This document shows, piece by piece, positions 165 through 60,200 of a stretch of 64,000 nt of DNA. The notes below the pieces were generated by a model. It ran no database searches, was not told where the DNA came from, and saw only the letters and a program-made list of their open reading frames with translations. Source of the DNA: Spirochaetota bacterium. GTDB lineage: Bacteria; Spirochaetota; UBA4802; UB4802. How positions within the stretch are numbered: position 1 is the stretch's first letter; every line of letters begins with the position of its first letter. A program made the position numbers and the translations under genes. The stretch covers positions 1 to 64,000 of the forward strand of contig JAOAIH010000008.1 in the NCBI GenBank assembly GCA_026414805.1, in the 5' to 3' direction.

Positions 165-330
165 GTTTCAGATATTGGGAAATCTTTCAAGTTTATTACT
201 AGTAACTATCGCTCAATTTTAAATATAAACACTGATAAACATTGAAGCACATATCATAATCAAATTAACATATTTGCATTTTTTTACCTCCACCTTATAG
301 ATAGAATATAAAAAAATGAATACAAAAAGC

Positions 331-366
331 TTGACAAATAATGGCACAAAGGTTAATGGTTATTCA
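331..366 (+). promoter_or_regulatory. candidate sigma70-type promoter of the beta-oxidation operon
   Basis: TTGACA (331-336), 17-bp spacer, TAATGG (354-359). A GAGGAGG RBS lies about 7 nt upstream of the ATG at 400. Confidence 0.35.
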
Positions 367-399
367 TTCATTATATATTTATAGTTCAGAGGAGGCATT

Positions 400-1560: not shown

Positions 1561-1609
1561 ACGCATGTTGAAACAAGTGTACCCAAACACTTTTATCTGG
1601 AGGAAGAAT

Positions 1610-2383: not shown

Positions 2384-2398
2384 AAGAGGAGGTTGTTT

Positions 2399-3601: not shown

Positions 3602-5443
3602 ATGCGCCCAAATCTTTTAGTGGATTCACGTGATGTAAGATTTATATTATTTGAAATGTTTGATATTTTACAACTTTCAAAGTTTGATATATATAAAGAT
3701 TTTGATAGGGATACGTATGAGTCAGTTCTGGATTTAGCTGAAACTATTGCGATGGAAGAGATATATCCCGCAAATACTATTGCAGATAAAGAAGGAATAA
3801 AATTTGATCCGGATACTCACACTGTTGTGGTGCCACAAGTTTTTAAAAAAGCGATGCATGCATTTAATGAAGCGGGATTTACAGGTATAGCACAACCAAT
3901 ATCAAGTGGTGGAATGGGGATGCCCGAACTTATGTACCGCATGGCACTGGAGTATTTTTTGGCAGCAAGTATTTCATTTACTATTTATATAACGTTGTCA
4001 AATGGTGCCACTAATCTTGTTCGCATTTTTGGCAATGAAGAACAAAAGCGCCTGTATTTGGGAAATATGGTAAGCGGTAAATGGGGCGGCACAATGTGTT
4101 TGACTGAACCGCAGGCGGGCTCAGATGTTGGAGCTATAAAAACAAAAGCATATCGACAAAGTGATGGTACCTATTCAATTAAGGGACAAAAGATATTCAT
4201 ATCTTCGGGGGAGAATGACCTGTACGAGAATATTATTCATATGGTATTGGCACGAATTGACGGTGACCCTGATGGTACCAAAGGTTTGTCCTTATTCCTT
4301 GTTCCTAAAATACTGGTCAATTCTGATGGAACTTTAGGAAAGCGAAACGATGTCATATGCACAGGTGTTGAACATAAAATGGGTATTAAAGCTTCCGCAA
4401 CCTGTACATTGAGTTTTGGGGATAATGATTGCTGTGTTGGATACCTGTTGGGGAATGAACGCGATGGCATCAAGAATATGTTTCACATGATGAACGAAGC
4501 TCGCCTTGACGTGGGGCTGGAAGGATTGGGTGTTTCAAGTGCAGCGTATATGCATGCTGTGCAGTATGCAAAGTTGCGAGTACAAGGCAAGACTATTTCT
4601 AAAAGTGAGCCAACAATCATAGGGCATCCAGATGTAAAGAGAATGCTTTTGTGGATGAAATCACATGTGGAAGCTATGCGAATGCTTGTTGCTCTTACTG
4701 CATTTAACATCGATATTTCAAGAACTCGGAATGACGAAATTGGAAAGAAAGCTCATGCTCTTGTTGAGTTTTTAATTCCTATCTGCAAGGCAGGGAATAC
4801 TGATTTATCGTGGTTAATTACTGCAGAGGCTGTTCAGGTATTTGGAGGGTATGGATATTGTGGTGATTATCCTGTAGAACAATATGCGCGTGATGCAAAG
4901 ATATTGTCAATATATGAAGGCACCAATGGCATTCAGTCAATTGATCTTGCAATGCGTAAAATTGTATCTGATGAAAAAAGGGAGCGTTATAATGCTTATA
5001 AGGAATATGCATACCAAGTTTTAAAAAATGCGGGGGCGATAGTACCTGATGCAATAATCAAAGAAATTGAAAAAGCAATCAAAGAAATGGATTCACTTAT
5101 TGGTATCATTGAAGGCAAAGATGCTTCGGCGGTATTAAGTATAGCAACTCCTTTGCAGCAGGCATTCAGAATACTGACACATGGAATTTTACATGTACAT
5201 TCAATGACCATTGCTATAAAGAAATTATCTTCGATTGTCAGAGAATATACATTGGGAGATGTTCCTGATGGTATAGACGATAACAATGAAGTAGCATTTT
5301 ATTATGGTAAAGTTCTTTCTGCACAATTTTTTCTAAATATGGAATTTCCAAAATATTATAGCCTGCTTGATAGCATCCGCAATGAGAATGGCATTGTCAT
5401 GAAAGCAAAGGCAGCAATTTTTACCGGAGTTCAGGAAGCATAA
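3602..5443 (+). CDS. acyl-CoA dehydrogenase, long (about 600 aa) FadE-like form
   Basis: ACAD middle and C-terminal motifs (CLTEPQAGSD, YEGTNGIQ) in a 613-aa protein with an extra C-terminal domain. Follows the thiolase with a GGGGGA RBS. Confidence 0.8.
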   Translation: MRPNLLVDSRDVRFILFEMFDILQLSKFDIYKDFDRDTYESVLDLAETIAMEEIYPANTIADKEGIKFDPDTHTVVVPQVFKKAMHAFNEAGFTGIAQPISSGGMGMPELMYRMALEYFLAASISFTIYITLSNGATNLVRIFGNEEQKRLYLGNMVSGKWGGTMCLTEPQAGSDVGAIKTKAYRQSDGTYSIKGQKIFISSGENDLYENIIHMVLARIDGDPDGTKGLSLFLVPKILVNSDGTLGKRNDVICTGVEHKMGIKASATCTLSFGDNDCCVGYLLGNERDGIKNMFHMMNEARLDVGLEGLGVSSAAYMHAVQYAKLRVQGKTISKSEPTIIGHPDVKRMLLWMKSHVEAMRMLVALTAFNIDISRTRNDEIGKKAHALVEFLIPICKAGNTDLSWLITAEAVQVFGGYGYCGDYPVEQYARDAKILSIYEGTNGIQSIDLAMRKIVSDEKRERYNAYKEYAYQVLKNAGAIVPDAIIKEIEKAIKEMDSLIGIIEGKDASAVLSIATPLQQAFRILTHGILHVHSMTIAIKKLSSIVREYTLGDVPDGIDDNNEVAFYYGKVLSAQFFLNMEFPKYYSLLDSIRNENGIVMKAKAAIFTGVQEA

Positions 5444-5447
5444 TACA

Positions 5448-6338
5448 ATGAAGTTGCATGAATCAGTATATATCCATAATGCCGATGTAACGCCGCGCGG
5501 AAAAAGAGCTCTCATCGTTGAAGGTGGAGGCATGCGCGGCGTTTTTTCTGCCGGTGTCCTTTTCGCTATGGGGTTAGGAGGAGTTACACAATTTGATCTG
5601 TACATAGGGGTATCGGCTGGTGCATGTAATTTGGCATCATTTCTTGGTCGGCAGTATGAACGCAATTTTTACATAATGGAAAAGTGGTCGGCTTCAAAGC
5701 GGTTTATCAATCCATTGCGGTTATTGTATGGCAATGTAATGGATTTAGACTGGCTATGGGATACTACTATCAGTAACTATCGCCTAAACTTAAAAGAAAT
5801 ATTTAAGGATACAACAAAAGAGTTCCTTATTGTGGTTACCTCAATGAATACAGGGAAGGCACTGTACATTAAGCCATGTGAAGATAATCTTGAATTTGTT
5901 TTGAAAGCTTCAAGTGCCTTACCAATTTTATATAGAAATACATTGTACATTGATGGGCACCGTGTAGCTGATGGTGGTGTAGGTGATTCAATTCCTGTTT
6001 TAGAAGCATACAAAAGAGGTGCTCGTGATATTGTCGTCATTCGTTCGCAGGGCAAGGGGTACAGAAAAAATAATATAAAGTTTAAGCCTATTTTAAAAAT
6101 ACTATTTTTACGCTATCCAGAATTTACTCATGCTTTGATGCAAAGGCATACGATGTATAATGCTGCGATTGAATTTATTGAAAAGCCACCGGGTGATGTA
6201 CGGATTATAGAAGTGTGCCCGCCTGCTACATTCAAAACTAAGCGCACAACAACTCATACACAAAAACTTTTAAAAGATTATTATACAGGCATACAGGCTG
6301 GTTATGCACTATGCAGGTATTATAAACAATTTTTATAG
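5448..6338 (+). CDS. patatin-like phospholipase
   Basis: GGGMRG oxyanion motif, GVSAG (GxSxG nucleophile elbow) and a DGG catalytic Asp motif. Confidence 0.8.
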   Translation: MKLHESVYIHNADVTPRGKRALIVEGGGMRGVFSAGVLFAMGLGGVTQFDLYIGVSAGACNLASFLGRQYERNFYIMEKWSASKRFINPLRLLYGNVMDLDWLWDTTISNYRLNLKEIFKDTTKEFLIVVTSMNTGKALYIKPCEDNLEFVLKASSALPILYRNTLYIDGHRVADGGVGDSIPVLEAYKRGARDIVVIRSQGKGYRKNNIKFKPILKILFLRYPEFTHALMQRHTMYNAAIEFIEKPPGDVRIIEVCPPATFKTKRTTTHTQKLLKDYYTGIQAGYALCRYYKQFL

Positions 6339-7012: not shown

Positions 7013-7117
7013 GGTAACTATCGCCCTTATTTAAAAAATTTTTTGGCGATTACACTATAGTATTGATAATAATACAATCATATTTTATGATGTAATGCAA
7101 AAAAAGTAGGATACAAT

Positions 7118-8862: not shown

Positions 8863-10431
8863 ATGAATGTATCTTTGACTAATGATTTTTCTTCTTATAT
8901 CAATCAACTTATTTATTCGTGGCTCAAAACCTTGATCCTTCTTGGATCTGTTCTTGTTCCAGGGTTTTTGATCCTAGATTATGTTATAACTCCACATGAA
9001 TTATTCCCGCGTTTTGTTGTATATAGAGCGGTATCCACAACACTGTTGATATTCCAGTATTTCATTTTGCGCATGTCAAAACCTGGCAGGTTTAATATAA
9101 TACATGGCTATGCAGCAACGTTGAATACAGGTTTTGTTATTTCCCTGATGACTGTTGACTTGGGTGGTTTTGCTTCCAGTTATTATGCAGGGCTTAACCT
9201 GGTTATCATTGGTGTTAATCTGTTAATTCCATGGCCATTTATTCATTCTTTGATTAATGGACTTGTTGTGGTGAGCATGTATGTAGGGCTTAATATTATC
9301 GCAATAGATTCTATTGATTATATAAGTATGATAAATAATCTTTTCTTTATGATATCAACAGTAGTCATCACTGCTAGTTTTAGCTATTTACGCTTTAAAC
9401 AGCTAAAAAGTGAATTTGATTTACGTGCACAGCTCACAAATGCTCAGGTTGATGAAATACAGGCTCTTGTGAATGTTGCTACAATTATCTCACGGGGTGA
9501 CCTTACAGTTACTATTAGTACATCTTCGGGTGGTGCTGCTGGAGCGCTTGAGCAGGCATTCAGCGTCATGGTGGCAAACTTAAGGCAGGCAATACAGCAA
9601 TTTAAAGAGCTTTCGCAAAATCTTACACTCTACAGTGATACAATTAAAGATAGCACCACCGCAATTCAAAAAGGTGTAGATGTACAGTTGCAGGTTACAA
9701 GCAATGCATCACATATAATTCAGAATATGACTCAGTGGTTTTCAAAAAATGCGCGCGAATCTGAAGATATACAAAAGCTGGCAAATAATGCAATACACGC
9801 TGCTACTGAAAGCAGCGCGTTGATGGATAAAGCAATTAAAAGCATGAACAGGATTGCACAGGTTGCAAAAATATCTTCACAGGAAGTTGAATCATTAAGC
9901 CAGTCCAGTAAAAGAATTCATGAAATAGCAGAAGCAATTGAGGAGATAGCTGACCAGACTAACCTTTTGGCACTCAATGCAGCTATAGAAGCAGCGCGGG
10001 CTGGAGAGCATGGACGAGGGTTTGCGGTTGTTTCTGACGAGGTAAGTAAATTAGCTGACCGTACAAGCAGAGCAACTAAAGAAATATCCACTATGACGGA
10101 GAGGATAATCAGAGATATTGCAAATACTGCAAGTGCCATGTTTGAAGTAAATAAAGAAGTTGAGACATCTTCTGCACTTATTACCAGTATGAACAGCCAG
10201 ATGAATGAATTGGTGAACCTTGCGCACAAGTTTAATTCCTTAATTGCACATATTTCACAATCTTCAAAAGACCAGTCAGTGCTGATTGCTGATGCTGGAA
10301 AAACACTCCACAGTATAAATGCTGTTTCCGATGAGCTATCGCAACTTGTAAAAGATATTAATGGTATTGTAAACGGAATGTATGAGTTGATAGAGAAACT
10401 TGAAACTATGGTGAAGGAATTTAAAGTGTAA
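8863..10431 (+). CDS. methyl-accepting chemotaxis protein with a multi-helix membrane N-terminus
   Basis: Highly conserved MCP signalling hairpin [34 protein letters not shown]. About 5-6 predicted TM helices at the N-terminus. Confidence 0.85.
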
Positions 10432-10607: not shown

Positions 10608-11933
10608 ATGGAACAAGAAACAATAGTAATAGCAGGATTGGGTTCGGCAGGGTATGCTGCGCTTGTTACGATAAAGCGTATTAATCCTAAAGCTCGTGTT
10701 GTTGTTATTGACCCTAAAGACAATGATATTGTTCATCCCTGTGGTTTGCCGTATGCGCTTGAGGGCATTGTAATTGATGAGCATCTCAAGCAGGATATTT
10801 TTTTGCACAGGATGAATGTTGAAAAGCGTAAGGGTATTGTGAAAAGTATTGATATTTCAAAAAAAGAAATTACTGTAGAGCAAGAAAATAGTAGTCATGT
10901 AGTTGCATACCAAAAAGCTATTTTGTGCACCGGTTACAGACCATTACTCCCGCCCATTATCAATGTTGAACAGTATATACACAATGGAGTATATACATTG
11001 AGCAGTCTATCCGATTTGCAAATGATAAAAAAGGAAATACATGAAAAAAAGCGGGCGATAGTTATTGGGGCAGGGGCTATAGGCCTTGAGGTTGCATATG
11101 CATTAAGAGTCTGTGGCATGGCTGTAACTGTAATTGAAGCAAAAGAAATTTTGTCACAAGCTGTTGATAGTGATATGGCTGAGATAGTAGAGCATTACTG
11201 TAGCAACCAAAGTATTCCCATTATAATGCATGCTCCAGTAACAGCATTGGAAAAGCATACGGAAGAATATATTGCAATAACTCCTGAAAAAGAATATACT
11301 GCCGACATTATCATTGTAGCTACCGGGTTTGCACCAAACTGTGATTGGGCTGTAAACTCTTCCCTTGCAACCAATAAAGATGGCGTAATAGTGAATGAAC
11401 ATCTGCAAGTACAACCGGATCTTTATGCTGCGGGAGATTGTATTAACAACTGGTCGGTTATAGATAAAAAGCCTTACCCGGTTAAATTGGCAACATCAGC
11501 ATATAAGCAGGGAATTGTTGCTGCTGAAAATGTTATGGGAATAAATTCTGTATATCGTGGTACTGCAGGCACATTTGTAACAAAAATAGGTGATCTGGAG
11601 ATTGCTGCAACAGGGTTTTCAACAAATGTTGCCAAGGAACGTGGCTTTTCTGTGATTGCAGGTAAAATTAGTGCTACAGTTAAACCAGAGTATTTTCCTA
11701 TCAATGAACGTTTGACTTTTAAAGTACTGTGTGATACAAATGGAAAACTTATAGGTGCTCAGGCCATAGGCCATGGTGCATCTGCGCGTATCAACATAGT
11801 AAGCCTTGCTATAGAATATGGATTAACTATTGACGAACTTATGCGTTTTGAAATGGCGTATTGCCCTGCGGTTAGCGAAGTGAATGATATTTTGTTTAAA
11901 GCCTGTGAGTTTGCAAAACGGAGACTGAAATGA
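10608..11933 (+). CDS. FAD-dependent pyridine nucleotide-disulfide oxidoreductase (NADH oxidase / CoA-disulfide reductase-like, single redox Cys)
   Basis: GLGSAGYAA FAD-binding fold, a single Cys in HPCGLPY (Nox/CoADR type), and a second Rossmann motif IVIGAGAIGLE. The stop overlaps the gcvT start (ATGA). Confidence 0.7.
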   Translation: MEQETIVIAGLGSAGYAALVTIKRINPKARVVVIDPKDNDIVHPCGLPYALEGIVIDEHLKQDIFLHRMNVEKRKGIVKSIDISKKEITVEQENSSHVVAYQKAILCTGYRPLLPPIINVEQYIHNGVYTLSSLSDLQMIKKEIHEKKRAIVIGAGAIGLEVAYALRVCGMAVTVIEAKEILSQAVDSDMAEIVEHYCSNQSIPIIMHAPVTALEKHTEEYIAITPEKEYTADIIIVATGFAPNCDWAVNSSLATNKDGVIVNEHLQVQPDLYAAGDCINNWSVIDKKPYPVKLATSAYKQGIVAAENVMGINSVYRGTAGTFVTKIGDLEIAATGFSTNVAKERGFSVIAGKISATVKPEYFPINERLTFKVLCDTNGKLIGAQAIGHGASARINIVSLAIEYGLTIDELMRFEMAYCPAVSEVNDILFKACEFAKRRLK

Positions 11934-13030
11934 ATGCTCAAAAAACCTTTCTGTATGAGGATCATATAAAATTAGGCGGTAAGATGGTTGAGTTTGCTGG
12001 ATGGGAATTGCCGGTGATGTATTCCTCAATTATTGAGGAGCATATGGCAGTGCGTCAGTCTGCGGGTTTATTTGATGTTTCACATATGGGTGAGATAGTT
12101 GTTAAAGGGAGAGGTGCACGGGCTGCTTTGCAAAGGCTTATCCCAACCGATATGGGAAGGCTTGAAAAAGGCAAGTCAATGTATACGTGCTTCCTGAATG
12201 AGCAGGGTGGTGTAATTGATGACCTCTTTATTTTTATGCTATCGGATAATGAATACTACCTGGTGGTAAATGCTGCCACAACCCAGAAGGATGTACAGTG
12301 GCTATTACAGAATTGCAAAACCAATGTTTCCATACAGGATGTTTCAGCCGCTACGGCTAAGATTGATCTGCAAGGTCCACAATCATATAATATTTTAAAA
12401 AAAATTATCAAAGATGACCGCTTAGAAGGGCTTGCACGATTTTATTTCTTTACTGGTACATATAAAGGTGAGCCAGTACTTATTTCACAAACGGGATACA
12501 CTGGTGAGTTTGGCTATGAGCTTTTCTGCATCAATAATGTGGCTTCACGGTTGTGGAATGATTTACTTGATGCAGGCAAGGAATATGGAATTAAACCTGT
12601 TGGCCTTGGTGCACGTGATACACTGCGCCTTGAAGCATCGTATTCGTTGTATGGGTATGAGCTAAGTGAAACTATATCACCAGTAGAAGGGGGTATTGGA
12701 TTTGTGGTGAGTGCACAGGCTGAGTATATTGCTAAAGATATCGTTGAAAAACAAAAAACCAGTGGTGCACCACGGCAAATAATATGCCTTGAAATGCTGG
12801 ATAAGGCAATTCCTAGAAGTGAATATAGAGTTTTGCATAATAATGAAGATATTGGATATATTACCAGTGGTGGTTTTTCACCACTTTTTAAAAAAGGCAT
12901 AGCTATGGCTCTTGTAAAAAGTGGCTTAGTATCAGTTGGGGATGAGGTGGCGATAGTTATCAGGGATAAAACAAGCCCTGCAAAGGTAGTACAAAGACCA
13001 TTTTACAAGTATACAGGCAAAAAGTTGTAA
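11930..13030 (+). CDS. gcvT: glycine cleavage system T protein (aminomethyltransferase)
   Basis: GcvT N-terminus KTFLYEDHIKLGGKMVEFAGWELPVMY and the GLFDVSHMG motif. 366 aa. Confidence 0.9.
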   Translation: MNAQKTFLYEDHIKLGGKMVEFAGWELPVMYSSIIEEHMAVRQSAGLFDVSHMGEIVVKGRGARAALQRLIPTDMGRLEKGKSMYTCFLNEQGGVIDDLFIFMLSDNEYYLVVNAATTQKDVQWLLQNCKTNVSIQDVSAATAKIDLQGPQSYNILKKIIKDDRLEGLARFYFFTGTYKGEPVLISQTGYTGEFGYELFCINNVASRLWNDLLDAGKEYGIKPVGLGARDTLRLEASYSLYGYELSETISPVEGGIGFVVSAQAEYIAKDIVEKQKTSGAPRQIICLEMLDKAIPRSEYRVLHNNEDIGYITSGGFSPLFKKGIAMALVKSGLVSVGDEVAIVIRDKTSPAKVVQRPFYKYTGKKL

Positions 13031-13120: not shown

Positions 13121-13494
13121 CTGTCATTATGAGAAGCGATATATTCCTTATATCGTATTGAAGAGTGCGGTACTCTCTTTTGTCGTATCAAGAAGCGTGG
13201 TACTCCCTCCTGTCATTTCGAGGAGCGAAGCGACGAGAAATCTTCACTTCACACAAGAGGAAAGATTTCTCATCCCGATAAATCGGGATTTGAAATGACA
13301 GAGTAGCAGAGAAGTGATTGGAAATGACAAGGTAGGAGACAAGGGATTGTAAATGACAAGGTAGGAGACAAGGGATTGTAAATGACATAGTAGCGAGTAA
13401 GGGACTACAAATGACAGAGTAAAAAGTAAAGAATTTGTAGTAACAGAGTAGCCAATAGTGATTTGAAATGGCAGGGTGATGATAATGTATTAGA
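13121..13494. repeat. composite repeat: about 4 reverse-orientation units (13121-13240), two perfect hairpins (13235-13289), then about 7 direct 29-bp units (13294-13494)
   Basis: Direct units such as aaatgacaaggtaggagacaagggattgt occur twice identically plus 5 degenerate copies. The upstream units (..gtactccctcctgtcattt..) are their reverse complements. Hairpin stems are gagaaatctt/aagatttctc (10 bp) and atcccgat/atcgggat (8 bp). Confidence 0.8.
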
Positions 13495-34355: not shown

Positions 34356-34428
34356 TTGTGTGGCGACAGCTCCTATGAGCTATCGCCCATTTATAAATGG
34401 TCTTAATTTTTGTTAAAGGATAGAAACA

Positions 34429-43574: not shown

Positions 43575-43672
43575 AAAAGCTCATAGATTGTATAAGATTT
43601 ATTTTTTGTCCTAATAGTTGTCGATAGTTACTGATATAAAAAATTATGCTAAAATAAAGAATAAAATCATTG

Positions 43673-43708
43673 ACATTCTATTCAAATTACACGCATAATA
43701 CGTAAAAA
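43673..43708 (+). promoter_or_regulatory. candidate sigma70 promoter of the 43752 gene
   Basis: TTGACA, 17-bp spacer, gCATAAT. Confidence 0.4.
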
Positions 43709-43751
43709 TAAAATATCGTATATTTTATCGTCAAAAATTGTGAGGTGAACA

Positions 43752-44245: not shown

Positions 44246-44285
44246 AAGCATGTAGGGTAAAAACTACATGCATTTTTTATTTTAA
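44246..44285 (+). terminator. rho-independent terminator
   Basis: Perfect 8-bp stem gcatgtag/ctacatgc with loop ggtaaaaa, followed by ATTTTTTATTTT. Confidence 0.7.
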
Positions 44286-45411: not shown

Positions 45412-47379
45412 TTAGCCTATATCTATTGTGATAATTGTTATATCATCGGTAATGTTTTCTTTGCTTTCTGCCCAAAGTAATGCTTCATCAATAAGCCTAT
45501 TTAAAAATTCACTGCCTTTTAGATGTTTGATTTTATGGATTGAGTTTATAAGCAATTCTATATCGTAGTAATGCTTAAATTTATTGGTAATATCTATAAG
45601 TCCATCAGTATAAAGAATTATCCTATCACCATTATGTATTTTGATTTGAGTGCTGTCAAAGACCATTGATGGGAACACGCCAATTACATTGCCTTTAGTT
45701 TTGATTTCTTCAATAGAACCTGTTGCAGCATTGAGATAAATAGGGTAAGGATTTCCTGCCCCACAAAAACGAACTACCATGTTTTCAGTGTCAAGATAGC
45801 AGTATAAAGCACTAATTGGTTGATTACCAGTTTTTCCAATAAGTAAATTATTGATATTTGTTAGCACCTTTTCTGGATGTTCAGCATATTTATACTGTAA
45901 AGTGAATGCGATATTTACTGTAGATGCTATTATTGATGCAGGTATTCCATGGCCAGTAACATCTGCTATGAATATCCCTGCATGTTTGTTATCAATATTA
46001 AAAAAATGGTAAAAATCACCTCCTATAGAATTCACCGGCAAATATAGAACATCAATTGAAGCACCTGAAAGCCTGGGAGATACTGGCGGCAAAATATTTC
46101 TTTGAATTTTTCTGGCTACATCCATTTCATTTGATAGAATTATCAGGCGTTGTTGTTGATTTATATATTCCTCAAATGCAATTAAAGTTTGGGTTACAAC
46201 AAATATAAGGATACCAAAATGGCTTGTATTTACTGTTTTTACTATCTGATGTGAAAAGAATATATCGTTTATGAGGCAACAAAAACCAGCAATAAGACCA
46301 AAGTAAAATAGCCGTTTTGTTTTTAAATTTTTACCTGTTTCTTTAAAAAGAATAATAAGAAGATAAAAGCTGATACATACAAGGGCTAATTGAATAAATA
46401 TCAGGGAAGCTGATACAATATGGAGAGAAGCTACACACACAAATAAAGTAAATAATCCAAAATAACTATCGTTTATCAATATATAATGCCTTTTAATTGT
46501 GCCTTTATACAAACTGTCTACAAAATGACAAAAGAGTATAGGCGATAGAGTTATCGTCAAGTATGAAAGCCTGAAATTAAGGCCCCATGGTGGGCTAAAG
46601 AAGCATATTAAAAGCATGTCGTTGATAACAAGAATGCGTAAAGCAACTATAAGTGAAAAAAGTCCTAAAAAGATATTTTGTTTTGATTTATTGATAAGAT
46701 ATAATCCTAAATGGTAGATACCAATTATAAACAATGAAGCAAAAACAAAAAGTTGAAGGTAAATAGATTTATTGTGTAAGTTTTTAATTACCTGGGGAGT
46801 TCCATAATAAATTGGATGTATAATGCCGCCATTGCGTTGCTGAAAATTAGCCACCTGAATGTAAATATCGGTTTTTGGTGATTTTACTATAAATTGTATG
46901 ATTGCAGGCAACTGGTTAGGTATCATTTTGTCTTTGCTGGTAGCAACAAATCCGCTATGTGCCGAAAGAATTCCATTGATGTATACAGAGTGAGAAGTAA
47001 AAGTGAAGGGCATTTTCAAGAACATAATTTTGCCAACTGTACTTTTAGAATGCAAAATTGTAATATGATACGTTCCGTAACCGTGCGATGGATAAGATTT
47101 AAAATGTTTTTGTTTATTCCATGGTCGGGGAACAGTAATATATGCAACCACGGGGTTTTGTAATTTTAATTGGTCATTATTTTCTATTAAATAATGCCAG
47201 TAAAACTTCCAAGTCCCTTCTAAATTTATTGGGCGTGAGATAGTGTTTTCAATATTTCTAAGGTCGATTATTCCATTATTTACATAAGCTTTAATAGCAA
47301 CATCAGTATTGCAGGATGGAATTACAAAACATAATAAACATACAACATAATGATAAAAAATCTTTTTGTAGATTGACAT
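45412..47379 (-). CDS. 7TMR-DISM sensor fused to a PP2C (SpoIIE/RsbU-type) serine phosphatase
   Basis: Extracellular 7TMR-DISMED2-like N-domain, 7 TM helices, and C-terminal PP2C motifs GGDFYHF, IADVTGHGIPAS and ILYTDGLID. Confidence 0.8.
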   Translation of the reverse strand: MSIYKKIFYHYVVCLLCFVIPSCNTDVAIKAYVNNGIIDLRNIENTISRPINLEGTWKFYWHYLIENNDQLKLQNPVVAYITVPRPWNKQKHFKSYPSHGYGTYHITILHSKSTVGKIMFLKMPFTFTSHSVYINGILSAHSGFVATSKDKMIPNQLPAIIQFIVKSPKTDIYIQVANFQQRNGGIIHPIYYGTPQVIKNLHNKSIYLQLFVFASLFIIGIYHLGLYLINKSKQNIFLGLFSLIVALRILVINDMLLICFFSPPWGLNFRLSYLTITLSPILFCHFVDSLYKGTIKRHYILINDSYFGLFTLFVCVASLHIVSASLIFIQLALVCISFYLLIILFKETGKNLKTKRLFYFGLIAGFCCLINDIFFSHQIVKTVNTSHFGILIFVVTQTLIAFEEYINQQQRLIILSNEMDVARKIQRNILPPVSPRLSGASIDVLYLPVNSIGGDFYHFFNIDNKHAGIFIADVTGHGIPASIIASTVNIAFTLQYKYAEHPEKVLTNINNLLIGKTGNQPISALYCYLDTENMVVRFCGAGNPYPIYLNAATGSIEEIKTKGNVIGVFPSMVFDSTQIKIHNGDRIILYTDGLIDITNKFKHYYDIELLINSIHKIKHLKGSEFLNRLIDEALLWAESKENITDDITIITIDIG

Positions 47380-47510: not shown

Positions 47511-49173
47511 TTAACTTTCAAAAACAGCACCACGATCAGCCGAAGAAACCATAAGGCTATAGCGATACATGTATCCGGTGGTAATTTTTGGTTTAGGAGC
47601 TTTCCATTTTGCAAGACGTGCTTTAATTTCATTATCATCAAGCTTCAGTGTAAGCTTTTTAGCGGGGATATCTATTTCTATTATATCGCCATCTTTTACT
47701 ATGGCAAGTGGACCACCTGCAGCAGCTTCTGGCGAAATATGACCAATTGAAGAGCCACGAGTTGCACCTGAAAATCTTCCATCGGTAATAAGTGCAACTT
47801 CTTTATCCATTCCCATTCCTGCAATAACTGATGTTGGTGTAAGCATTTCACGCATTCCAGGACCACCACGGGGACCTTCATAACGGATGACAATGACATC
47901 GCCTTTTTGTATCTGCCCACCCATGATTGCTTTTACAGCTTCTTCTTCTGAATCAAACACCCTGGCAGGACCACTATGTTTTAACATTGATGGATCTACA
48001 GCAGCCTGTTTAACAATACACCCATCAGGAGCCAGATTTCCTGTTAACACTGCCAACCCTCCGTCTTTATGCACAGGCTTGTTGACCGAACGTATTACAG
48101 AAGTATCAGCAATTGTTTTATCCTTCACATTTTGTGCAATCGATTTTCCTGTAACTGTCATGCAGGTGCCATGAATAAGTCCGTGTTTAAGCAGTTCGTT
48201 CATCAAAGCAGGGATTCCACCAGCATAGTGAAGGTCTACCATGTGATGAGGGCCTGAGGGTGCAATGCTACATAAATGCGGCTGTGCGCTCAGAAATAGG
48301 TTGTATATCTTTAAGCCGTATAGGTAAACCTGCATAATGAGCTATCGCCGGTATATGTAACGCAGTATTTGATGACCCACCAATTGCCATATCCACAGCT
48401 AGTGCATTTTCAATGGCTTTTTTTGTTACAATTTTGCGCGGGGTTATCTGTTTTTTAACAAGTTCCACTATCTTTTTTCCACTTTCTTTGGCAAGGCGTA
48501 GGCGGTCGGACATGACAGCAGGTATGGTACCATTATAGGGAAGTGCCAACCCCAACGCTTCGGTGAGACAGTTCATGGAATTTGCTGTGTAAAGCCCTGC
48601 GCATGATCCTGCACCAGGACAGGCTGCGCACTCAATTTCATATAACTCCTCTTTTGTAATAATCCCTTTGGCTGCTTTGCCTACAGCTTCAAATACATTG
48701 TCCACGGCAATTGGCTTGCCTTTATATATACCCGGAAGCATGGGACCTCCGGATACAATAATTGTAGGTATATCAAGTTTAACAGCTGCAATAATCATGC
48801 CAGGAACTATCTTATCACAGTTTGGTATCATTACTAAACCATCAAATGCATGGGCTTTTGCCATAATTTCTATTGAGTCAGCAATCAGCTCACGTGAACC
48901 CAGGGAATATTTCATACCAATGTGATTCATTGCAATTCCATCGCATACTCCTATAGTGGGGAATTCAATTGGAGTGCCACCTGCAGCAATAACGCCTTTT
49001 TTAACTGCTTCAGCCACATTTCGCAAATGGATGTGTCCTGGAATTATCTCATTAAATGAATTTACAACGCCAATCAAAGGTTTTGCTAATTCATCGTCGT
49101 TTAGCCCTAAAGCTTTGAATAGTGAACGGTGTGGAGCTTTTTCAATTCCTTTTTTAACGCGATCGCTGATCAT
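47511..49173 (-). pseudogene. ilvD: dihydroxy-acid dehydratase gene interrupted by a single frameshift
   Basis: ORF 48268-49173 is the IlvD N-terminal half ([18 protein letters not shown]). ORF 47511-48335 is the C-terminal half ([22 protein letters not shown]). They join as ..ISERT|PHLC.. if one nucleotide near 48275-48285 is removed. Confidence 0.7.
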
Positions 49174-49337: not shown

Positions 49338-50348
49338 ATGTTTAACCCGTTAAAAATATTTAAAAATACAAAAGTTGGTATTGCACTTGGAAGTGGTGGT
49401 GCAAAAGGAGTTGCACATATTGCAGTTCTTGATTATTGCATTAAAAAAGAAATTCCAATTTCCATGATTGCAGGATCAAGTATAGGTGCTGTGATTGGTT
49501 CATTATATGCGTATGGTGCATTGCCTGAATTCACAGCGTTTTTAAAATCAGTAAAGGGTAACGATTTATTTGCATACTTTGATCCGGTGTTTCCCAAAAC
49601 AGGGCTTATACAAGGCAAGCGGGTAATGGAGTTGTTATCAAAATTTATTCCCAAAAGTGTTGATCTTGAAGATCTTTCAATACCGGTTGCAATTGTTGCA
49701 ACCGATTTTTACACTGGCAAACCAGTAGTATTTAAAAAAGGTAACGTTCTTGATGCAATACGGGCAAGCATATCAATACCTGGAATATTTGTTCCTGTTA
49801 AATACATGGATACTGTGCTCATTGATGGGGGTGTCAGCAATCCATTGCCCATTGATGTGGTTAAACAAATGGGTGCTGGCATTATAATAGCTGTTAATCT
49901 GCATCCAACAATTAAAGTTAAAAGGGCGATAGCTCCTACAATTATACAAAACAAAACAGCTCACACAGAAAATTCATCAAATGATATTATTGAACATGTT
50001 GATAAAGATTTACTGGATACACAAGCAGTGGTTGCCAAACAAGCAAAAGGGTGGTTACACAGTGTAAAACGGTGGCTTGGCGTATCAACCGAGCAAAGCA
50101 ATAAAACCCAAAACCAGGATGCAATGCCAAATATTTTTGAGATAGTAGCTGGAACAATTGACATTATGGAATATATGAATACAACCCTTATGATAACGTA
50201 TAATAAGCCTGATGTGCTTGTTGAGCCAAATCTTGTTGAAGTTGGTACGCTGGATTTTACAAAAGTTGATATTCTTTTACACGAAGGTTTTGCAGCCTGC
50301 CAGCGGGTTGAAAAAGATATAACTCGTAAAGTAGTCAGGTGGATGTAA
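49338..50348 (+). CDS. patatin-like phospholipase (RssA/YchK-like)
   Basis: GSGGAKG oxyanion motif, GSSIG nucleophile elbow, DGGVSNPLP catalytic Asp. Confidence 0.8.
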   Translation: MFNPLKIFKNTKVGIALGSGGAKGVAHIAVLDYCIKKEIPISMIAGSSIGAVIGSLYAYGALPEFTAFLKSVKGNDLFAYFDPVFPKTGLIQGKRVMELLSKFIPKSVDLEDLSIPVAIVATDFYTGKPVVFKKGNVLDAIRASISIPGIFVPVKYMDTVLIDGGVSNPLPIDVVKQMGAGIIIAVNLHPTIKVKRAIAPTIIQNKTAHTENSSNDIIEHVDKDLLDTQAVVAKQAKGWLHSVKRWLGVSTEQSNKTQNQDAMPNIFEIVAGTIDIMEYMNTTLMITYNKPDVLVEPNLVEVGTLDFTKVDILLHEGFAACQRVEKDITRKVVRWM

Positions 50349-51055: not shown

Positions 51056-51150
51056 AATGCTGTATGTATTGCAGGCAGCGATTGCTGTTGCTATCGCCCA
51101 ATACAATTATTATGTATTTGATGATACATGATAGGTATGTTATCAAATAA

Positions 51151-54225: not shown

Positions 54226-56490
54226 TTATAATGTTTTTTCTTCTGGTATAGCTGCAACGTCTATATCAAGTGATTCATTGAATATTTGTAAAATATTTTT
54301 TGTGCAATTTGCTATTTTTGAAGCATTAACCAAATAGGCATAAAACAAAATACTTAGCCGCGTTTTAGAAGTTTCATCCTGTACACGTCGTATTTGCTTT
54401 TTATCAAATTCTGATATCAAATGAGCCAATCTGTTACATTTTTTTTCAACAAGCGATAAGTCGGCAATTTTATCTTTTTTAAGAGATTGCGCAGTGAAAT
54501 TCAATAAGTCCTTCAGGTGTTCAATTATCTGTTCCAATTCGGTTATCTGTACTTTAAGAAGCCCTTTATGATGGTTTTCAACATGAAGATACGAGCGGAC
54601 TGCAATATCGCGCTGGCTTTCTGCAATATCCTGTAAATTGCTTATAATCTGTGCATACCGTTGAGTTGCTGAAATATCCATCTTATGCAAAAGACGTAAT
54701 GTTTTAAAAATATTAGCAACTATAATATTGACCCATTCCTGTATATTTTTGGAATCATTGCGAGCAATTCGTAGCTCAACACGGTCATACAGTTTTAAGC
54801 CGTTAAAGCTCCTTACAACGGATTTTGAAATTTCTTCAAGAAGTTTCCCTGTCTGTTCAAATGTTATTTTAATAGCCGGGATGGGATCTTTAATTTTACG
54901 TAAATTATATACTTCAATTTTGCTTTCTACTTGTGTTTTTTCTTCATGTTTAATGTGATTTTTCCATAACAAATAGGCCGATAGGGCTACCAATAAAATG
55001 ATTCCTATCCCTGACAGTTTATAGATTATCATTGCATACACAAATGAAATTGTGAATGCCATAAACGCAGTAAAAAACCATCCACCAATAACTGTCATTA
55101 CCCCCGAAACTCTATATACAGCACTTTCCCTATCCCATGCACCATCGGCAAGTGAGGTTCCCATTGCAACCATGAAGGTAACATACGTTGTTGATAGGGG
55201 GAGTTTTAGTGAAGTTGCAAATGCAATCAGTGCACTTGATACAACTAAATTTACTGATGCCCTGATAAGATCAAATGATACAGGCCTACCATCTTCTGAT
55301 TGCCCATTAAACAATGCAATATCTTTACGCTTGTTAATTATTTCAATAATTCTTTTTGGTATGAATATTTTTACTGTATCAATAAAGTTTACAGTCATTC
55401 GTACTATAACTCGTGCAAGGAAAAATGGCTCAAACCGCTCAAGTCCCTCGTCCTGTCTTCCTAAATTCACTTCGGTCTTTGTTACTGTTCGTGCTTTTTT
55501 TGATACCCATAAGGTTATTGCCATAATTATGCCGGCTAAAAGTAGAATAAAAGTGTTGGTTTTAACTGGCTCATTGAGTGCTTCCATAGTAACGGTGAGG
55601 GGATTGGCAAAAAGTTTAGCATGGGAAAATGCACTGAATCCAGCAAGCGGAACGCCAATAAAATTTACTAAATCATTTGCTGCAAATGCCATTGCCAGTG
55701 CAAATGTACCTGCTAAAACAATTGATTTAAGTATATTAATATTAAACAAACTTGCAGTTATCTGTAATACTACTGCACTGCATATAAATGTACCCAGTAT
55801 AATAGTGTAACTGTGAGTTTGTATCCATTGTATCTGTTGAGCTGTTAAAAACGATGCGCCCTTTGCACCTTTTATAAGTATAAAGTATACTATCATTGAG
55901 AGGGCAAATCCACCCCAAATGGCTCCATACCGTTTTAAGCGCGACATGAAGTCAAATGTGAATATCATGCGGGATATAAATTGAAATATTACACCTGCAG
56001 TAAATGCAATAATAACTGATAAAAGAATACCTGATATAATACCCAAGACTTTGTCGGTATTAATATAATCTCCTAGTAGAGCATAATTTTTTGTTGTATT
56101 GAAAATTTTTATAAGCGATAGCGCAACGGAAGCACCCAGTAATTCAAATATTATTGAAACCGTTGTTGAAGTAGGGATCCCAAATGTATTGAATAAATCC
56201 AATAAGATAACATCAGCAAGCATTACAGCTAAGAATATGATTATGAGCTCATACAGTACAAAATTTGAAGGATTAAATATACCTTTACGCGCTATTTCCA
56301 TCATTCCGCTTGAAAATGTCACACCTGCTAAAATACCAAGGCTAGCAACAATTAAAATAGTTTTAATGCTGGCAACTTTTGAGCCTATAGCTGAATTTAA
56401 GAAGTTTACCGCATCATTGGCAACACCAACAATAAGGTCTAATATTGCTAAAACAAGCAAAATAAACAACGATAAATATATTATTTCCAT
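54226..56490 (-). CDS. inorganic phosphate transporter (PiT/PHO4 family) with a C-terminal PhoU-like domain
   Basis: Two PHO4 repeats with GVANDAVN and AFAANDLVN motifs. About 250 aa of C-terminal PhoU-like helical domain. 754 aa. Confidence 0.75.
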   Translation of the reverse strand: MEIIYLSLFILLVLAILDLIVGVANDAVNFLNSAIGSKVASIKTILIVASLGILAGVTFSSGMMEIARKGIFNPSNFVLYELIIIFLAVMLADVILLDLFNTFGIPTSTTVSIIFELLGASVALSLIKIFNTTKNYALLGDYINTDKVLGIISGILLSVIIAFTAGVIFQFISRMIFTFDFMSRLKRYGAIWGGFALSMIVYFILIKGAKGASFLTAQQIQWIQTHSYTIILGTFICSAVVLQITASLFNINILKSIVLAGTFALAMAFAANDLVNFIGVPLAGFSAFSHAKLFANPLTVTMEALNEPVKTNTFILLLAGIIMAITLWVSKKARTVTKTEVNLGRQDEGLERFEPFFLARVIVRMTVNFIDTVKIFIPKRIIEIINKRKDIALFNGQSEDGRPVSFDLIRASVNLVVSSALIAFATSLKLPLSTTYVTFMVAMGTSLADGAWDRESAVYRVSGVMTVIGGWFFTAFMAFTISFVYAMIIYKLSGIGIILLVALSAYLLWKNHIKHEEKTQVESKIEVYNLRKIKDPIPAIKITFEQTGKLLEEISKSVVRSFNGLKLYDRVELRIARNDSKNIQEWVNIIVANIFKTLRLLHKMDISATQRYAQIISNLQDIAESQRDIAVRSYLHVENHHKGLLKVQITELEQIIEHLKDLLNFTAQSLKKDKIADLSLVEKKCNRLAHLISEFDKKQIRRVQDETSKTRLSILFYAYLVNASKIANCTKNILQIFNESLDIDVAAIPEEKTL

Positions 56491-57207
56491 TGTTACCTGC
56501 CTTTAATGATTGTTTGGTAGTACACGTGAAACAATTATTGCATATTGAAAAATAGTGTGATGACTTGTATAAGCTGGCAGAAATTATAAATGAGGGATAT
56601 TTTAGTCAATATCTTTTATAAAATAAATTTTTAAAATTCTTCAACTAAAAATTGTAAAAAAAACTAGCTTCCACGAGAAATGGAATCAATAAAGAATGGA
56701 ATCTATATTATAAAATAAAAATTTTAGTAAGCGGGACATTATATGTCACTGTGCGCAGTATAAATTGCATTTAAAATTCTATTGTGAAATTGTTATTATG
56801 AGCAATGAAGTAAACAAGTAGCTTATCACAGTTGAAATGTAGGTAAATATACATAGTGATTGCTGTAATGGTGTGGCGATAGTTACTGTAAAAGTAAATA
56901 GTAGATATTCAATACCAATATTACGATATTGTTTCTTTAAAATATTGCAGTAATGATATTATCTAAGTCCAGGTGATTACTATGCATTGCTAAGAGTAAA
57001 AAATGATTGAAAAATTATAATTTAATAAAATATAGTAATGATGTAACAGGTGTTCTTAAATTTAATTAAATAGTGAAATAAAAACACTGTGAAATTTAGA
57101 AAAGATAACATATTTTTTTATATACAATTATAATAAAAGATGATGGCGTTGAAATGCGCTGGTGAAGGATGAATTTAATGATCTATAAATTATATAGCTA
57201 AACTAAT

Positions 57208-60200
57208 ATGAATACTGAATTTTATCTTTACACAAGTAACAACCTTGAATTTCTAGTTGATGAGTTAGGTAAACTACTTTTTAAAAAAAGGAAAAACGAT
57301 ATTCTTTCTCCTCACACTATTATTGTGCAGAGTTTAGGAATGCAGCGTTGGATATCGTTGCAGTTAGCTCAACGATATGGTGTTTTTACAAACTGCCTGT
57401 TCCCTTTTCCGCAACAATTTGCATTAGATGTTTTTAAGGCTGTGATTCCTGACTATGAGCTATCGCCCTTGTATGAAAATAAAATACTTATATGGCAGCT
57501 GGTAAAATTATTACCGCAATGCATTAATGAAATGGGATTTGAACAGGTAAAAAACTATTTAGTTGTTGATGGTACAATAAGCCAGATAAGGTTATACCAG
57601 CTTGCACACAGACTTGCAAATCTGTATGATGAGTATTTGGTATATTTTTATGAGTATATCCTGGAATGGGAAAAGCCAACAAAACAAAACGACTGGCAGA
57701 TTGTTTTATGGCGTTACGTCAAAAATGCTGTTGGTGACAATTCATCAGCATGTCACAAGGCCCAGCTTTTAAAAAAAGCAATCAAAAAATTGAGTGACTC
57801 CAAAAATAATGAAGCTTTAAAAGAAAAATTTTCTCCTTACATTATTTTGTTTGGGATTACAACCTTGCCCCAGTATTACATTGAATTATTCAAAGCTTTA
57901 AGCAGCGTTGTGCCGGTGCATATTTTTCAGCTTAATCCATCAAAGGAATACTGGTTTGATACAATAAATGAAAAGAAGAAGTTGCGTTTGGAGGAAGAAA
58001 ACATTGATACTGAAAAATTAAAATATGAAGTTGGCAATCCGCTTTTATCTTCGTTGGGAAAAGTTGGTGCAGAGTATATTGAAATGCTATTAGACTACGA
58101 AGCTGTAGATACTATAAACAGCGATACTGCATATACGTACATTGACAACACACAGAATGAAACTCTCCTGCGCATTCTACAGTCAGATATTTGTAGATTA
58201 ATTAATAGAGGAAGTAATGATAAAGAAATTTACAATCCCAATAGAATACAACCAAAAGTAGCAATTAATTCTAATGATAGATCAATTTCAATACATTCGT
58301 GCCATTCACCTCTACGTGAGGTTGAAGTGCTTAGAGATTACATCATTGATGTAATGAATAACAATGATATAATTCCCAATGATATAATTGTGATGGCACC
58401 TGATATTGATTTGTATGCGCCGTTTATACAAGCGGTATTTGATGAACAGGTGTTGAAGAAAGAAGGGTTGCCCTCGTTGCCATATTGCATTGCTGACCAG
58501 TCTTATAAAAACACCAGCAGGTTCATATCGGCATTTTGTGATTTACTAGAGGTTTTAGCAGGCAGATTGGAAGCCGATGTGGTGTGCCAGCTTCTTGAGT
58601 ACGATGAAGTTGCTTCTGGTTTTGGTATAGATAAACAGGCAGTATTGCAATTTCATGCATGGGTTGAAGAGCTTAATGTGCGCTGGGGAAAAGATAGTGC
58701 TCATCGAAAGCAATTTACACAGCAGGAAAGCAATGCGTTTACGTGGCACTATGCAATTGAACGAATGCTTATGGGCTATGCAGTACCAGAAAGTGCTGGG
58801 ATTGTAGATGATATAATGCCATTTGACTGCGTCGAAGGGTCCATGGGCAATGTTTTGGGATGTTTCATTAATTTTCTGAAAACACTTTTTTATTTTTACG
58901 ATGAAGCACAAAAACCAAAACCCCTATTGCAGTGGGCTGAGTTTTGCCAACATTGCGTCAATGCCCTGCTTAATGTGGAAAATCATTCACAGGATTATGA
59001 AAATATACAAAACTTGTTTGAGTCATTGCGGGCGATAGCTCCTAAAATTAATCTTACTGATAACATAGAATTTCTGGTTATAAAAAGCTGGATTGAAGAT
59101 TTTATTTCTGAGCAAAGAGTCAGCAGTAATTTTTTAACTAAAGGAATAACCTTTTGCCAGCTTTTACCCATGCGAAGTATTCCATTTAAGGTTGTGTGCC
59201 TTTTAGGAATGAATGATGATTTTCCACGACAGGATGACATTATAAGCTTTGATATAATGCGTAATGATGAAAAATATAAAAAGGAGCTGCCACGCTGTAT
59301 CCGTTCAAAGCGAAGCGATGACCGCTATTTATTTTTGGAAAGCATCATTTCTGCAAAGGAGTATCTTTTTATAAGCTATCAGGGTCAGGATCCGGTTGAT
59401 TTGAGCTTAAAGGAGCCCTCAATAGTTGTCAATGAACTTTTGGAGTACATTGAACAAGGTTTTTATTGTATTGATGAGAGCCAATCCATACGTGATTATT
59501 TAGTAACACAACACCATCTGCATCATTTTCATCCTGCATATTTCAACAACAGTAACAAACTTTTTTCGTATTCAAAAATGTGGTGTAATGAAAGCATTGC
59601 ACTGTATGATGAAAAGCGTGAGTATGAACCGCTAGTTATGCAGCCAGTAAAAACAGAAAAATTACAAACTGTAATAACCATGGATGAATTTGTACAGTTC
59701 TTTTATAATCCAGCCCGTTACTTTATTACAAAAATGTTGGGGATACACCTGCGTGATAGCGTTATTGAATTGAACAGCGAAGAACCTCTGGTGGTGCCAG
59801 CAGGCTTGGATAAATACACATTAAGCAACGAGTTGCTTGAATGGCGTATTCAAAACAATGAAGTTGAACAGTTTATTCATTTAAAAAAGAAAAATGGACA
59901 AATTCCAGATGGCGTGTTGGGCGATGTTATTGTTAAAAAAACAAATGAAGAGATTACACCTTTCATTGAAACTGTTACACGCATGTGCAAAGGTACAAAG
60001 CAACGTTATGAGGTGGAATATACTGTAAGTAATAATAATATTAATATTGTAATAAGAGGACTAGTTACACTATATGGCAACAACCAAATTTTTTATAGAT
60101 ATGGGAACTTGAAAGCAAAGGACAGAATAAAAGCATTTTTATGGCATATCTTTGTTTGCGTTGCATGTAATGCCAATGTGTGTACTTATTTTATTACAAA

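Follow-up and report, generated by a model that had tools for sequence, protein, structure and literature searches.

A hyperabundant, site-conserved genomic word of the DUS/USS/HIP type in uncultured low-GC Spirochaetota

Introduction

Sequence-specific DNA uptake relies on short words that are repeated all over the genome of the recipient. The described DNA uptake-enhancing sequences (DUES) comprise the uptake signal sequences (USS) of Pasteurellaceae (AAGTGCGGT / ACAAGCGGT) and the DNA-uptake sequences (DUS) of Neisseriaceae (AT-GCCGTCTGAA and dialects), and a 2025 comparative study describes them for these two families only (bioRxiv 10.1101/2025.10.24.684340). In this work, we analyzed the first 64,000 nucleotides of contig JAOAIH010000008.1 from an uncultured member of the Spirochaetota (assembly GCA_026414805.1; this whole stretch is hereafter named the window) and we report a hyperabundant short word, (A)ACTATCGCC, which recurs approximately once per 2 kb in this spirochaete lineage.

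For the comparison with DUS and USS, we drew on properties reported previously (PMC2346458, PMC1939737, PMC3630211, bioRxiv 10.1101/2025.10.24.684340). Uptake sequences show no general orientation bias (PMC2346458), are biased toward particular frames when located in coding sequence (PMC2346458; bioRxiv 10.1101/2025.10.24.684340), and are found for about half of them in predicted terminators (bioRxiv 10.1101/2025.10.24.684340). Their published mismatch profiles drop steeply, with values of 183 / 2.0 / 0.22 and 392 / 4.8 / 0.65 (PMC1939737 Table 1). Another family of iterated words is represented by HIP1 of cyanobacteria (GCGATCGC), which is 15- to 300-fold over-represented and whose sites are conserved within open reading frames (ORFs) as well as between them (PMC5861425).

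Results

The 8-mer CTATCGCC is present in 23 copies in the window, while 0.51 ± 0.72 copies are expected from dinucleotide-preserving shuffles and 1.06 from an order-3 Markov model. Similarly, its 7-mer core CTATCGC is found 36 times (2.46 ± 1.52 expected) and the 10-mer ARCTATCGCC 19 times, which corresponds to an excess of 20- to 45-fold for the 8-mer and of ∼100-fold for 10-mers. An unbiased scan of all 7- and 8-mers ranked CTATCGCC first by a wide margin, the remaining top 8-mers being overlapping shifts of the same word. The exact form is strongly preferred since single-base variants reach 0 to 8 copies apiece versus 23, and the excess falls from 20.7 to 0.47, 0.13, and 0.03 at 0, 1, 2, and 3 mismatches, respectively. 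The copies show no significantly even spacing along the window (coefficient of variation of 0.79, p=0.09). The segment 59039-64000, which includes the 3' end of recC and recB, is devoid of copies and is among the three longest gaps.

The hyperabundance is thus stronger than claimed in a preliminary description of this DNA, which had proposed about 28 copies of the core where we count 36. Among the longer forms listed there, the four copies of AGGAGCTATCGC are all found (14499, 15554, 49926-, and 59032-). At least six exact copies had been announced for ATGAGCTATCGCC; five are exact (25418-, 27648, 34375, 48337, and 57455, the last one previously placed at 57465), the copy at 10331 ending in ...CGCA. 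Likewise, the five to six copies assigned to AGTAACTATCGCC/GTAACTATCGCC hold for GTAACTATCGCC (n=5), while AGTAACTATCGCC itself has just two exact copies (5772 and 56875-) and the copy at 201 ends in ...CGCT. The 16-mer CTATGAGCTATCGCCC is present in three exact copies with unrelated flanks. Two subtypes of the word coexist in the window, xGAG-CTATCGCC and xTAA-CTATCGCC.

An alignment of 84 non-redundant sites, taken from both the window and related contigs, confines the information to positions -9 to +8, with the consensus T(-9), C/Y(-7,-6), A(-5), K(-4), G(-3), A(-2), R(-1), CTATCGC, C(+7), c/a(+8), followed on the 3' side by a faintly A/T-rich stretch and nothing further. Part of the metagenomic sites in this set came from a search seeded with a 16-mer, so that positions -7 to -1 are biased; position -9 escapes this effect. 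The word is therefore a ∼17-nt asymmetric motif, T(-9)..A-K-G-A-R-CTATCGC-C, of which the core is nearly always exact. Besides, the families that a repeat finder builds on the word drop to ∼75% identity within 21-25 nt. Together with the limits of flank information, this decay indicates a short word rather than a piece of some mobile element, in agreement with the earlier view that flanks differ at every site and that no dispersed mobile element is involved.

The window consists of ordinary chromosomal core DNA that encodes β-oxidation, glycine cleavage, and lipoate metabolism functions, amt, glnA, the mraZ-to-ftsZ division cluster, ilvD, a uracil-DNA glycosylase (UDG), recC, and recB. Thirty of the 36 copies are genic (16 sense, 14 antisense) and the other six are located in spacers; along the genes, these 30 sites show no preferred position. 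The copies had been seen in several reading frames, on both gene strands, and in spacers. Strands and spacers are indeed all used, but the frames are far from uniform as 25 of the 30 genic sites fall in one of two: 13 of the 16 sense sites read CTA|TCG|C (Leu-Ser) and 12 of the 14 antisense sites read G|GCG|ATA|G (Ala-Ile-Ala/Val). A TAG stop would arise in the third antisense frame. The codons used by the word are rare in this genome (CTA, 8%; TCG, 12%; GCG, 9%) and yet 17 of the 130 Leu-Ser dipeptides are encoded by CTA-TCG versus 1.1 expected from codon usage (∼15-fold). Since these codons are rare, the host proteins mutually unrelated, and both strands as well as spacers occupied, a peptide motif or codon usage is ruled out as the cause. 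The word is imposed on DNA and fitted into the frames tolerated by proteins (L-S, A-I-A/V, and T-I-A). In addition, the equal use of both transcription orientations argues against a function at the RNA level.

Two other candidate explanations for the word were considered and rejected. Searches of the window for tRNA, tmRNA, and Rfam families gave zero matches. The reverse complement GGCGATAGCTCAT resembles the 5' acceptor stem and D-arm of a tRNA, but the register is off by one base and the TAA subtype misfits, and the likeness was taken as a coincidence. A sigma-28 -10 box (GCCGATAA-like) does not fit either, given an incorrect spacing to A/T-rich tracts and the mainly genic location of the copies.

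The word is shared by a whole clade. RecC of the window is 100% identical to NCBI MCX8123140.1 and its homologues form a tight group at 52-65% identity before falling to 33% in other phyla. The clade was sampled with nine genomes: the window, the GTDB representative metagenome-assembled genome (MAG) JARYLT01 (named L001), and seven syntenic recC loci (L284-L290) taken from NCBI, ENA, JGI, and Logan assemblies. L001 is syntenic with positions 35.8-52 kb of the window (FtsZ identity of 97%, nucleotide identity of ∼80%) and carries 0.42 word copies per kb. In L284-L290, seven of seven loci contain the word, with densities of 0.30-0.63 per kb and unchanged flanking preferences; their top 8-mers include ACTATCGC or AACTATCG. 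Altogether, 119 core copies are distributed over 239 kb, with the word present in all nine genomes (RecC identity ≥52%) and hence in the eight relatives, where the preliminary description had suggested to look for it. Conversely, the nearest spirochaetes beyond this group (FtsZ identity of 73-77%, higher GC) and 29 unrelated low-GC loci totaling 511 kb show the word at background level. A family-level clade of uncultured low-GC Spirochaetota appears to carry the word approximately every 2 kb along the whole chromosome. Position -1 is mostly A in the relatives and G or A in the species of the window; the former favor AACTATCGC and the latter has expanded GAGCTATCGCC (the GAG-CTATCGCC form), a mild dialect-like shift within the clade.

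Public metagenome contigs were also scanned with the 16-mer, which matched 116 of them. Approximately 11 of these contigs (GC of 0.36-0.41) carry two to six further copies with the same extended motif next to housekeeping genes (pheST, ssb-rpsR-rplI-dnaB, fliF, genes of methyl-accepting chemotaxis proteins [MCPs], and β-oxidation genes) and, judging from composition and motif, probably belong to the same clade. In viral contigs, 87 single chance matches to a 14-mer were obtained, none with the extended motif.

Some features of the recC neighborhood are variable in this clade. In L284-L290, the recC gene is preceded by a variable island in the upstream spacer, which contains rmuC in most relatives (at this position, rmuC is absent from the window) and, depending on the genome, HEPN/nucleotidyltransferase and PIN/MazE toxin-antitoxin pairs, an AAA_14 ATPase, and a transposase fragment. 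Downstream of recD, GC-rich intergenic repeat arrays are found in L284 (19130-19700, units of ∼53 nt containing GTCACCCCTCCGGGG) and L289 (20500-21020, 23-nt tandem units), neither of which is present in the window. Three clustered cores in L289 (20772-20879) belong to this separate GC-rich repeat and are not typical words.

Sites of the word are retained at orthologous positions well beyond the background. Between the window and L001, four of seven sites are kept versus 23% of all 7-mers, with three sites gained or lost each way, and two of the three sites lost in L001 are CpG-to-TpG (C-to-T) changes. In the diverged spacer at 51091, the core is kept while the flanks changed. Across the clade, the Leu-Ser-Pro site of recC is CTA TCG CCx in seven of eight genomes, the Thr-Ile-Ala site of recD is ACT ATC GCC/A in seven of seven, and two rmuC sites are identical in six of six, with nearby synonymous positions varying freely. 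When columns with a conserved amino acid are compared, the same codon is used in all genomes for 10 of 13 word columns versus 156 of 1072 background columns (a shared-codon background of ∼5% for Leu, Ser, Thr, Ile, and Ala). As this test is ascertainment-biased, conserved columns being picked by construction, a reference-based test on four genes was added: a word site corresponds to the identical 7-mer in 72% of the other genomes versus 10% for other 7-mers. This retention, combined with rare synonymous codons being kept at orthologous sites, indicates selection on the DNA itself. Purifying selection at the DNA level, or a persistent drive of equivalent effect, acts on the word independently of strand, transcription direction, and protein meaning. 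The gene rmuC harbors two to three clade-conserved word copies in ∼1 kb, and the copies present in recB of the relatives are poorly conserved.

The word displays no replication polarity. In the window, the 7-mer is found 21 times on the plus strand and 15 times on the minus strand (p=0.41) and the 8-mer 12 and 11 times, respectively, far from the strand bias of about 20 to 8 initially proposed. GC skew is positive nearly throughout the window (G-rich plus strand), which suggests that the window probably belongs to one replication arm, and the C-rich form of the word is, if anything, slightly in excess on the G-rich strand. Both ratios depart from a Chi-type skew of 75% (p=0.015 for 12:11 and p=0.02 for 21:15). 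When independent metagenomic contigs were pooled by sign of GC skew, the orientation was 38 versus 32, each contig in these polarity data being a single replichore segment. A Chi-like reading, which was among the options initially listed together with DUS/USS- and HIP1-like words, is consequently weakened because the 20:8 bias on which it relied does not exist; a DUS/USS-like and HIP1-like class is supported. None of these three classes was said to be known with this sequence, which agrees with the literature that we searched.

Intergenic copies represent 6 of 36 in 8% of the window sequence, a ∼2-fold enrichment that is not significant (p=0.06). They are often part of hairpins, in which the word faces an adjacent inverted and frequently degenerate copy. 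One example of the window (34362-34392, GGCGAcAGCTC-ctat-GAGCTaTCGCC) is located in the mraY-murD spacer and has a ΔG of -10.7 kcal/mol and a z-score of -4.2, with 0 of 200 shuffles as stable. Another one is found at 51078-51097 (GCGATtGC-tgtt-GCtATCGC(C), z of -2.0). Hairpins at the word are present in relatives as well, with a perfect 13-bp stem in L205 and a 9-bp stem in L001, and z is below -2 at 7 of 17 intergenic sites versus 8 of 67 among the genic ones. Divergent promoter regions hold three of the six intergenic sites of the window. In L001, the divergent promoter region upstream of a HEAT-repeat gene contains the inverted pair GCGATAGTT-n12-AACTATCGC together with two direct ACTATCGTC repeats. 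Just upstream of this gene, direct repeats of a related motif are also present in L001 (7890-7917, ATACTATCGTCAATACTATCGTCAAAAA) and in the window (43704-43735, ATATCGT...TTATCGTCAAAAA), which may constitute an operator using the ACTATCG core.

The individual copies of the window are distributed as follows. In spacers, AGTAACTATCGCt at 206-212 (+) is upstream of the 3-hydroxyacyl-CoA dehydrogenase gene and GGTAACTATCGCC at 7018-7025 (+) is 5 nt upstream of the start of a minus-strand acyltransferase gene, where its ATCGCC pairs with a GGCGAT 19 nt downstream. Divergent regions host ACAAACTATCGCt at 21532-21538 (+), in a promoter region, and AGTAACTATCGCC at 56875-56882 (-), upstream of recC. 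The hairpin 34362-34392 (+) includes the core at 34380-34387 and the 16-mer copy at 34373, and that of 51078-51098 (+), downstream of the UDG gene, includes the core at 51091-51098, which is kept in L001 with diverged flanks. A degenerate intergenic copy, CAGTAACTATCGAc, is found at 43622-43627 (-); the orthologous spacer of L001 is the one carrying the perfect inverted pair described above.

Sense copies in the Leu-Ser frame include 7-mers at 2945-2951 (+, CTA|TCG, thiolase gene), 17112-17118 (+, lipoyl synthase gene), 20066-20072 (-, minus-strand HEAT-repeat gene), 30954-30960 (+), and 56115-56121 (-, PHO4 transporter gene). The frame reads E-L-S for ATGAGCTATCGCa at 10336-10342 (+) in an MCP gene and for AGGAGCTATCGCa at both 14504-14510 (+) in gcvP and 15559-15565 (+) in gcvP2, E-L-S-P for AGGAACTATCGCC at 22050-22057 (+), and K-L-S-P for ATAAACTATCGCC at 39882-39889 (+), which is kept in L001. 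The site at 46541-46548 (-) reads L-S-P and its orthologous position in L001 is without the word. The two other exact copies of the 16-mer CTATGAGCTATCGCCC both read Y-E-L-S-P, at 25418-25425 (-) in glnA and at 57460-57467 (+) in recC (16-mer copy at 57453), where CTA TCG is kept in seven of eight clade genomes. Sense copies in other frames are AGTAACTATCGCC at 5777-5784 (+, patatin gene) and ATTAACTATCGCt at 30824-30830 (+), both reading N-Y-R, and the site at 38981-38988 (+) in murC, the only sense one of the window in the GCT|ATC|GCC (A-I-A) frame, for which L001 has CTATTGCC.

Antisense copies read A-I for CTATCGCC at 5035-5042 (-, GCG|ATA, acyl-CoA dehydrogenase gene), and A-I-V for AATAACTATCGCC at 11054-11061 (-), GATAACTATCGCC at 12949-12956 (-, gcvT), and GGTAACTATCGCC at 17234-17241 (-). 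The A-I-A frame is used by TAGAGCTATCGCC at 18720-18727 (+, antisense to a minus-strand gene), ATGAGCTATCGCC at 27653-27660 (+), TTGAGCTATCGCC at 29307-29314 (-, rsmH/mraW), GGTAGCTATCGCC at 32755-32762 (-), and AGGAGCTATCGCC at 59031-59038 (-, recC), of which GCG ATA G is kept in five of eight clade genomes. It extends to A-I-A-H for ATGAGCTATCGCC at 48342-48349 (+, ilvD), which reads CTATTGCC in L001, and to A-I-A-P for AGGAGCTATCGCC at 49925-49932 (-), which is kept in L001. The 7-mer at 40342-40348 (-) in ftsA reads K-A-I and is kept in L001, while relatives from outside the clade encode KAI with GCC ATC. Finally, the 7-mer core at 2139-2145 (-, enoyl-CoA hydratase gene) and GGTAACTATCGCC at 24818-24825 (+, amt) are in the G-D-R and G-D-S frames, respectively.

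The gene ilvD (47511-49173, minus) is split in the window into two overlapping ORFs with a junction near 48282, due to a 1-nt insertion (ACAGCCGCA vs ACA-CCTCA) when compared with L001, in which the gene is intact (553 aa); it is either a pseudogene or an assembly error. A link between this frameshift and the word at 48342 was rejected, the insertion being ∼60 nt off. Two further repeats were observed in the window. The gcvT-gcvH spacer (13285-13421) contains ∼4.7 copies of a 29-nt tandem repeat (consensus GGGATTGGAAATGACAAAGTAGCAGACAA), with no Pfam match for the overlapping ORF and no Rfam match. A second word, tgCTCTGAC(a/c)CC, is present in seven copies versus 0.6 expected (minus strand at 54, 76, 150, 406, 801, and 1757; also 7242+). 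It is clustered in the first 2 kb (48-1757), including a 22-nt tandem repeat at 48-98, and this partly genic cluster may originate from a protein motif in β-oxidation genes.

Discussion

The hyperabundance of the word, its mismatch profile, its absence of polarity, its frame bias, its clade-wide conservation with dialect drift, and its inverted copies lead us to propose, tentatively, as the most likely of the mechanisms considered that it marks self DNA for uptake or transformation in the manner of DUS and USS. From this abundance, anatomy, distribution, and selection, we infer a scenario in which the double-stranded word would be bound by the DNA receptor, located at the surface or in the periplasm, of a transformation system, and own-kind DNA would thereby be preferentially taken up, or processed and recombined. 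Through repeated rounds of uptake and recombination, possibly with selection, the word would remain abundant and become fixed at orthologous sites, while its dialects would drift between lineages. It is also possible, although we would not presume it, that the word represents a third and independently evolved uptake-sequence family, the first outside Pseudomonadota.

Several observations weigh against a role in uptake. Only 17-20% of the copies are intergenic versus about half of DUS/USS in predicted terminators, none of the word hairpins is followed by a T-run, the one clear terminator found in 28-48 kb (44248-44271) is without the word, and perfect inverted pairs are rare (two found). The fold-excess (20-45 for the 8-mer and ∼100 for 10-mers) is below those of DUS and USS. 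Genes for ComEA, ComEC, DprA, pilins, a secretin, or a type IV pilus did not turn up in the window, nor in ∼300 kb of DNA from the clade, and the literature searched yielded neither an uptake experiment for this lineage nor any documentation of natural transformation in spirochaetes. Finally, an intracellular function would be compatible as well with such a strong conservation of positions.

This last point is the core of a HIP1-like alternative, in which DNA-level selection would serve an intracellular role (orphan methyltransferase site, nucleoid- or chromosome-organizing protein, or post-uptake recombination enhancer) in place of a receptor target, and which we consider unlikely but worth keeping in mind. 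The 20- to 100-fold excess is within the 15- to 300-fold range of HIP1, whose sites are similarly conserved within and between ORFs (PMC5861425), A-I-A is often encoded as it is by the GCG ATC GC of HIP1, and a cellular role fits such conservation at RecC identities of 52-65%. In L001, two of the three losses are C-to-T at CpG, which would be compatible with cytosine methylation; however, this point concerns two sites and CTATTGCC is unremarkable among single-mismatch variants. Moreover, no methyltransferase or restriction-modification gene was found nearby, and the word is not palindromic: CTATCGCC and GGCGATAG, its reverse complement, are different, and the word lacks any palindromic methylase-type sub-site such as the GATC or CGATCG of HIP1. 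HIP1's own role is itself unresolved and may be linked to transformation. A rather improbable alternative is that the word acts as Chi for the RecBCD enzyme of the clade, RecC reading GGCGATAG (or its complement) in the unwound 3' strand so that degradation would be attenuated and RecA loaded. Intact recC, recB, and (in relatives) recD, a 7-8 nt core like that of E. coli Chi, the G-rich character of one strand, and abundance in core genes would suit this function. Nevertheless, E. coli Chi is for ∼75% on the leading strand, and known Chi sites have a much smaller excess and a much shorter footprint than the ∼17 nt of the word. The balanced orientations reported above, in a window of uniform skew as well as in pooled contigs, and the intergenic inverted pairs, which are not a Chi feature, do not match this behavior.

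A functionless word maintained as a neutral by-product of a repair or gene-conversion bias, with a very-short-patch-like process turning near-cognates into the word, appears about equally improbable. It would account for the sharp peak at the exact word, the turnover between the window and L001 (four shared, three gained or lost each way), and the overriding of rare codons. However, single-mismatch variants are mildly over-represented (+47%) and not depleted as conversion predicts, and retention at the same codons despite saturated synonymous sites needs more than random replenishment; a similar conservation-based reasoning led Xu et al. to prefer selection for HIP1 (PMC5861425). Sites for a regulator or transcription factor are hardly probable. 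The related ACTATCG(T/C) motif is repeated upstream of some genes, as seen with the inverted pair and direct repeats next to the HEAT-repeat gene of L001, and half of the intergenic sites of the window are in divergent promoter regions, but more than 80% of the copies are inside genes in either orientation at ∼1 per 2 kb, with no positional preference within genes, and extrapolation to the genome yields on the order of a thousand sites. At the far end, an artefact resulting from fragments of a larger dispersed repeat or miniature inverted-repeat transposable element (MITE), from a conserved peptide motif, or from codon usage is refuted. Repeat finders do group the copies and most genic ones share two frames, but the 84 sites hold no information beyond -9 to +8, the families decay in 21-25 nt, the host proteins are unrelated, rare codons are used 15-fold above expectation, both strands and spacers are occupied, and no Rfam or tRNA match is obtained.

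If the word is an uptake tag, a family-level clade of uncultured low-GC Spirochaetota would possess sequence-selective natural transformation with a word-specific receptor. In the literature searched, sequence-specific uptake is described from two families only. A third hyperabundant word selected at the DNA level, in an unrelated and uncultured phylum-level lineage, would mean that genome-wide self-tagging words evolve repeatedly. If it is unrelated to uptake, the word could instead represent a novel asymmetric 'self' tag, present genome-wide and read by an intracellular system. It would offer a concrete 10- to 17-nt probe for competence, for the receptor (gene versus word presence across MAGs), and for binning or tracking the clade in metagenomes, and the conservation of its sites cleanly illustrates how synonymous positions can be selected for reasons other than translation. 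A literature search with its sequence returned only primers and no publication of the word.

Compared with known systems, the word shares with DUS and USS a non-palindromic and near-exact core (8-12 nt) with a weaker extended flank, copies every 1-2 kb over the core genome in genes and spacers, some intergenic copies arranged as hairpin-forming inverted repeats, a mismatch profile of the same shape with a steep drop from 0 to 1 mismatch, the lack of replication polarity, and family-wide conservation with dialect drift. It differs from them by an unrelated sequence in Spirochaetota versus Pseudomonadota, a lower density (∼0.5 per kb) and fold-excess, and few terminator-like hairpins, none with a T-run. 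In the DNA covered, no competence genes or ComP-type minor pilin receptor turned up. DUS and USS being defined by preferential uptake, and the terminator association of the word being weak, it cannot be filed as DUS or USS. Like HIP1, it is a hyperabundant octamer conserved at orthologous sites, often reading Ala-Ile-Ala, with no peptide, RNA, or expression explanation and with a possible link to transformation or recombination, HIP1 itself being still unexplained after 30 years. HIP1 is, however, palindromic and contains the targets of two orphan methyltransferases, in contrast to the asymmetric word. With Chi (GCTGGTGG in E. coli; other lineage-specific 5-8-mers), it shares a short asymmetric form, enrichment in core DNA, and an encoded RecBCD, but Chi is strongly co-oriented with replication and modestly over-represented whereas the word is without polarity, 20- to 100-fold in excess, and has a ∼17-nt footprint. 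Repetitive extragenic palindromes and bacterial interspersed mosaic elements (REP/BIME), Correia elements, and other MITE-like repeats are likewise dispersed in many copies with some hairpins; yet they are longer, extragenic, and palindromic, while more than 80% of the word copies are single arms in coding sequence with unrelated flanks. The word therefore does not fit Chi (no polarity), HIP1 (no palindrome), or a REP or MITE (genic, no extended homology): it is a hyperabundant genomic word of the DUS/USS/HIP type, in a new phylum.

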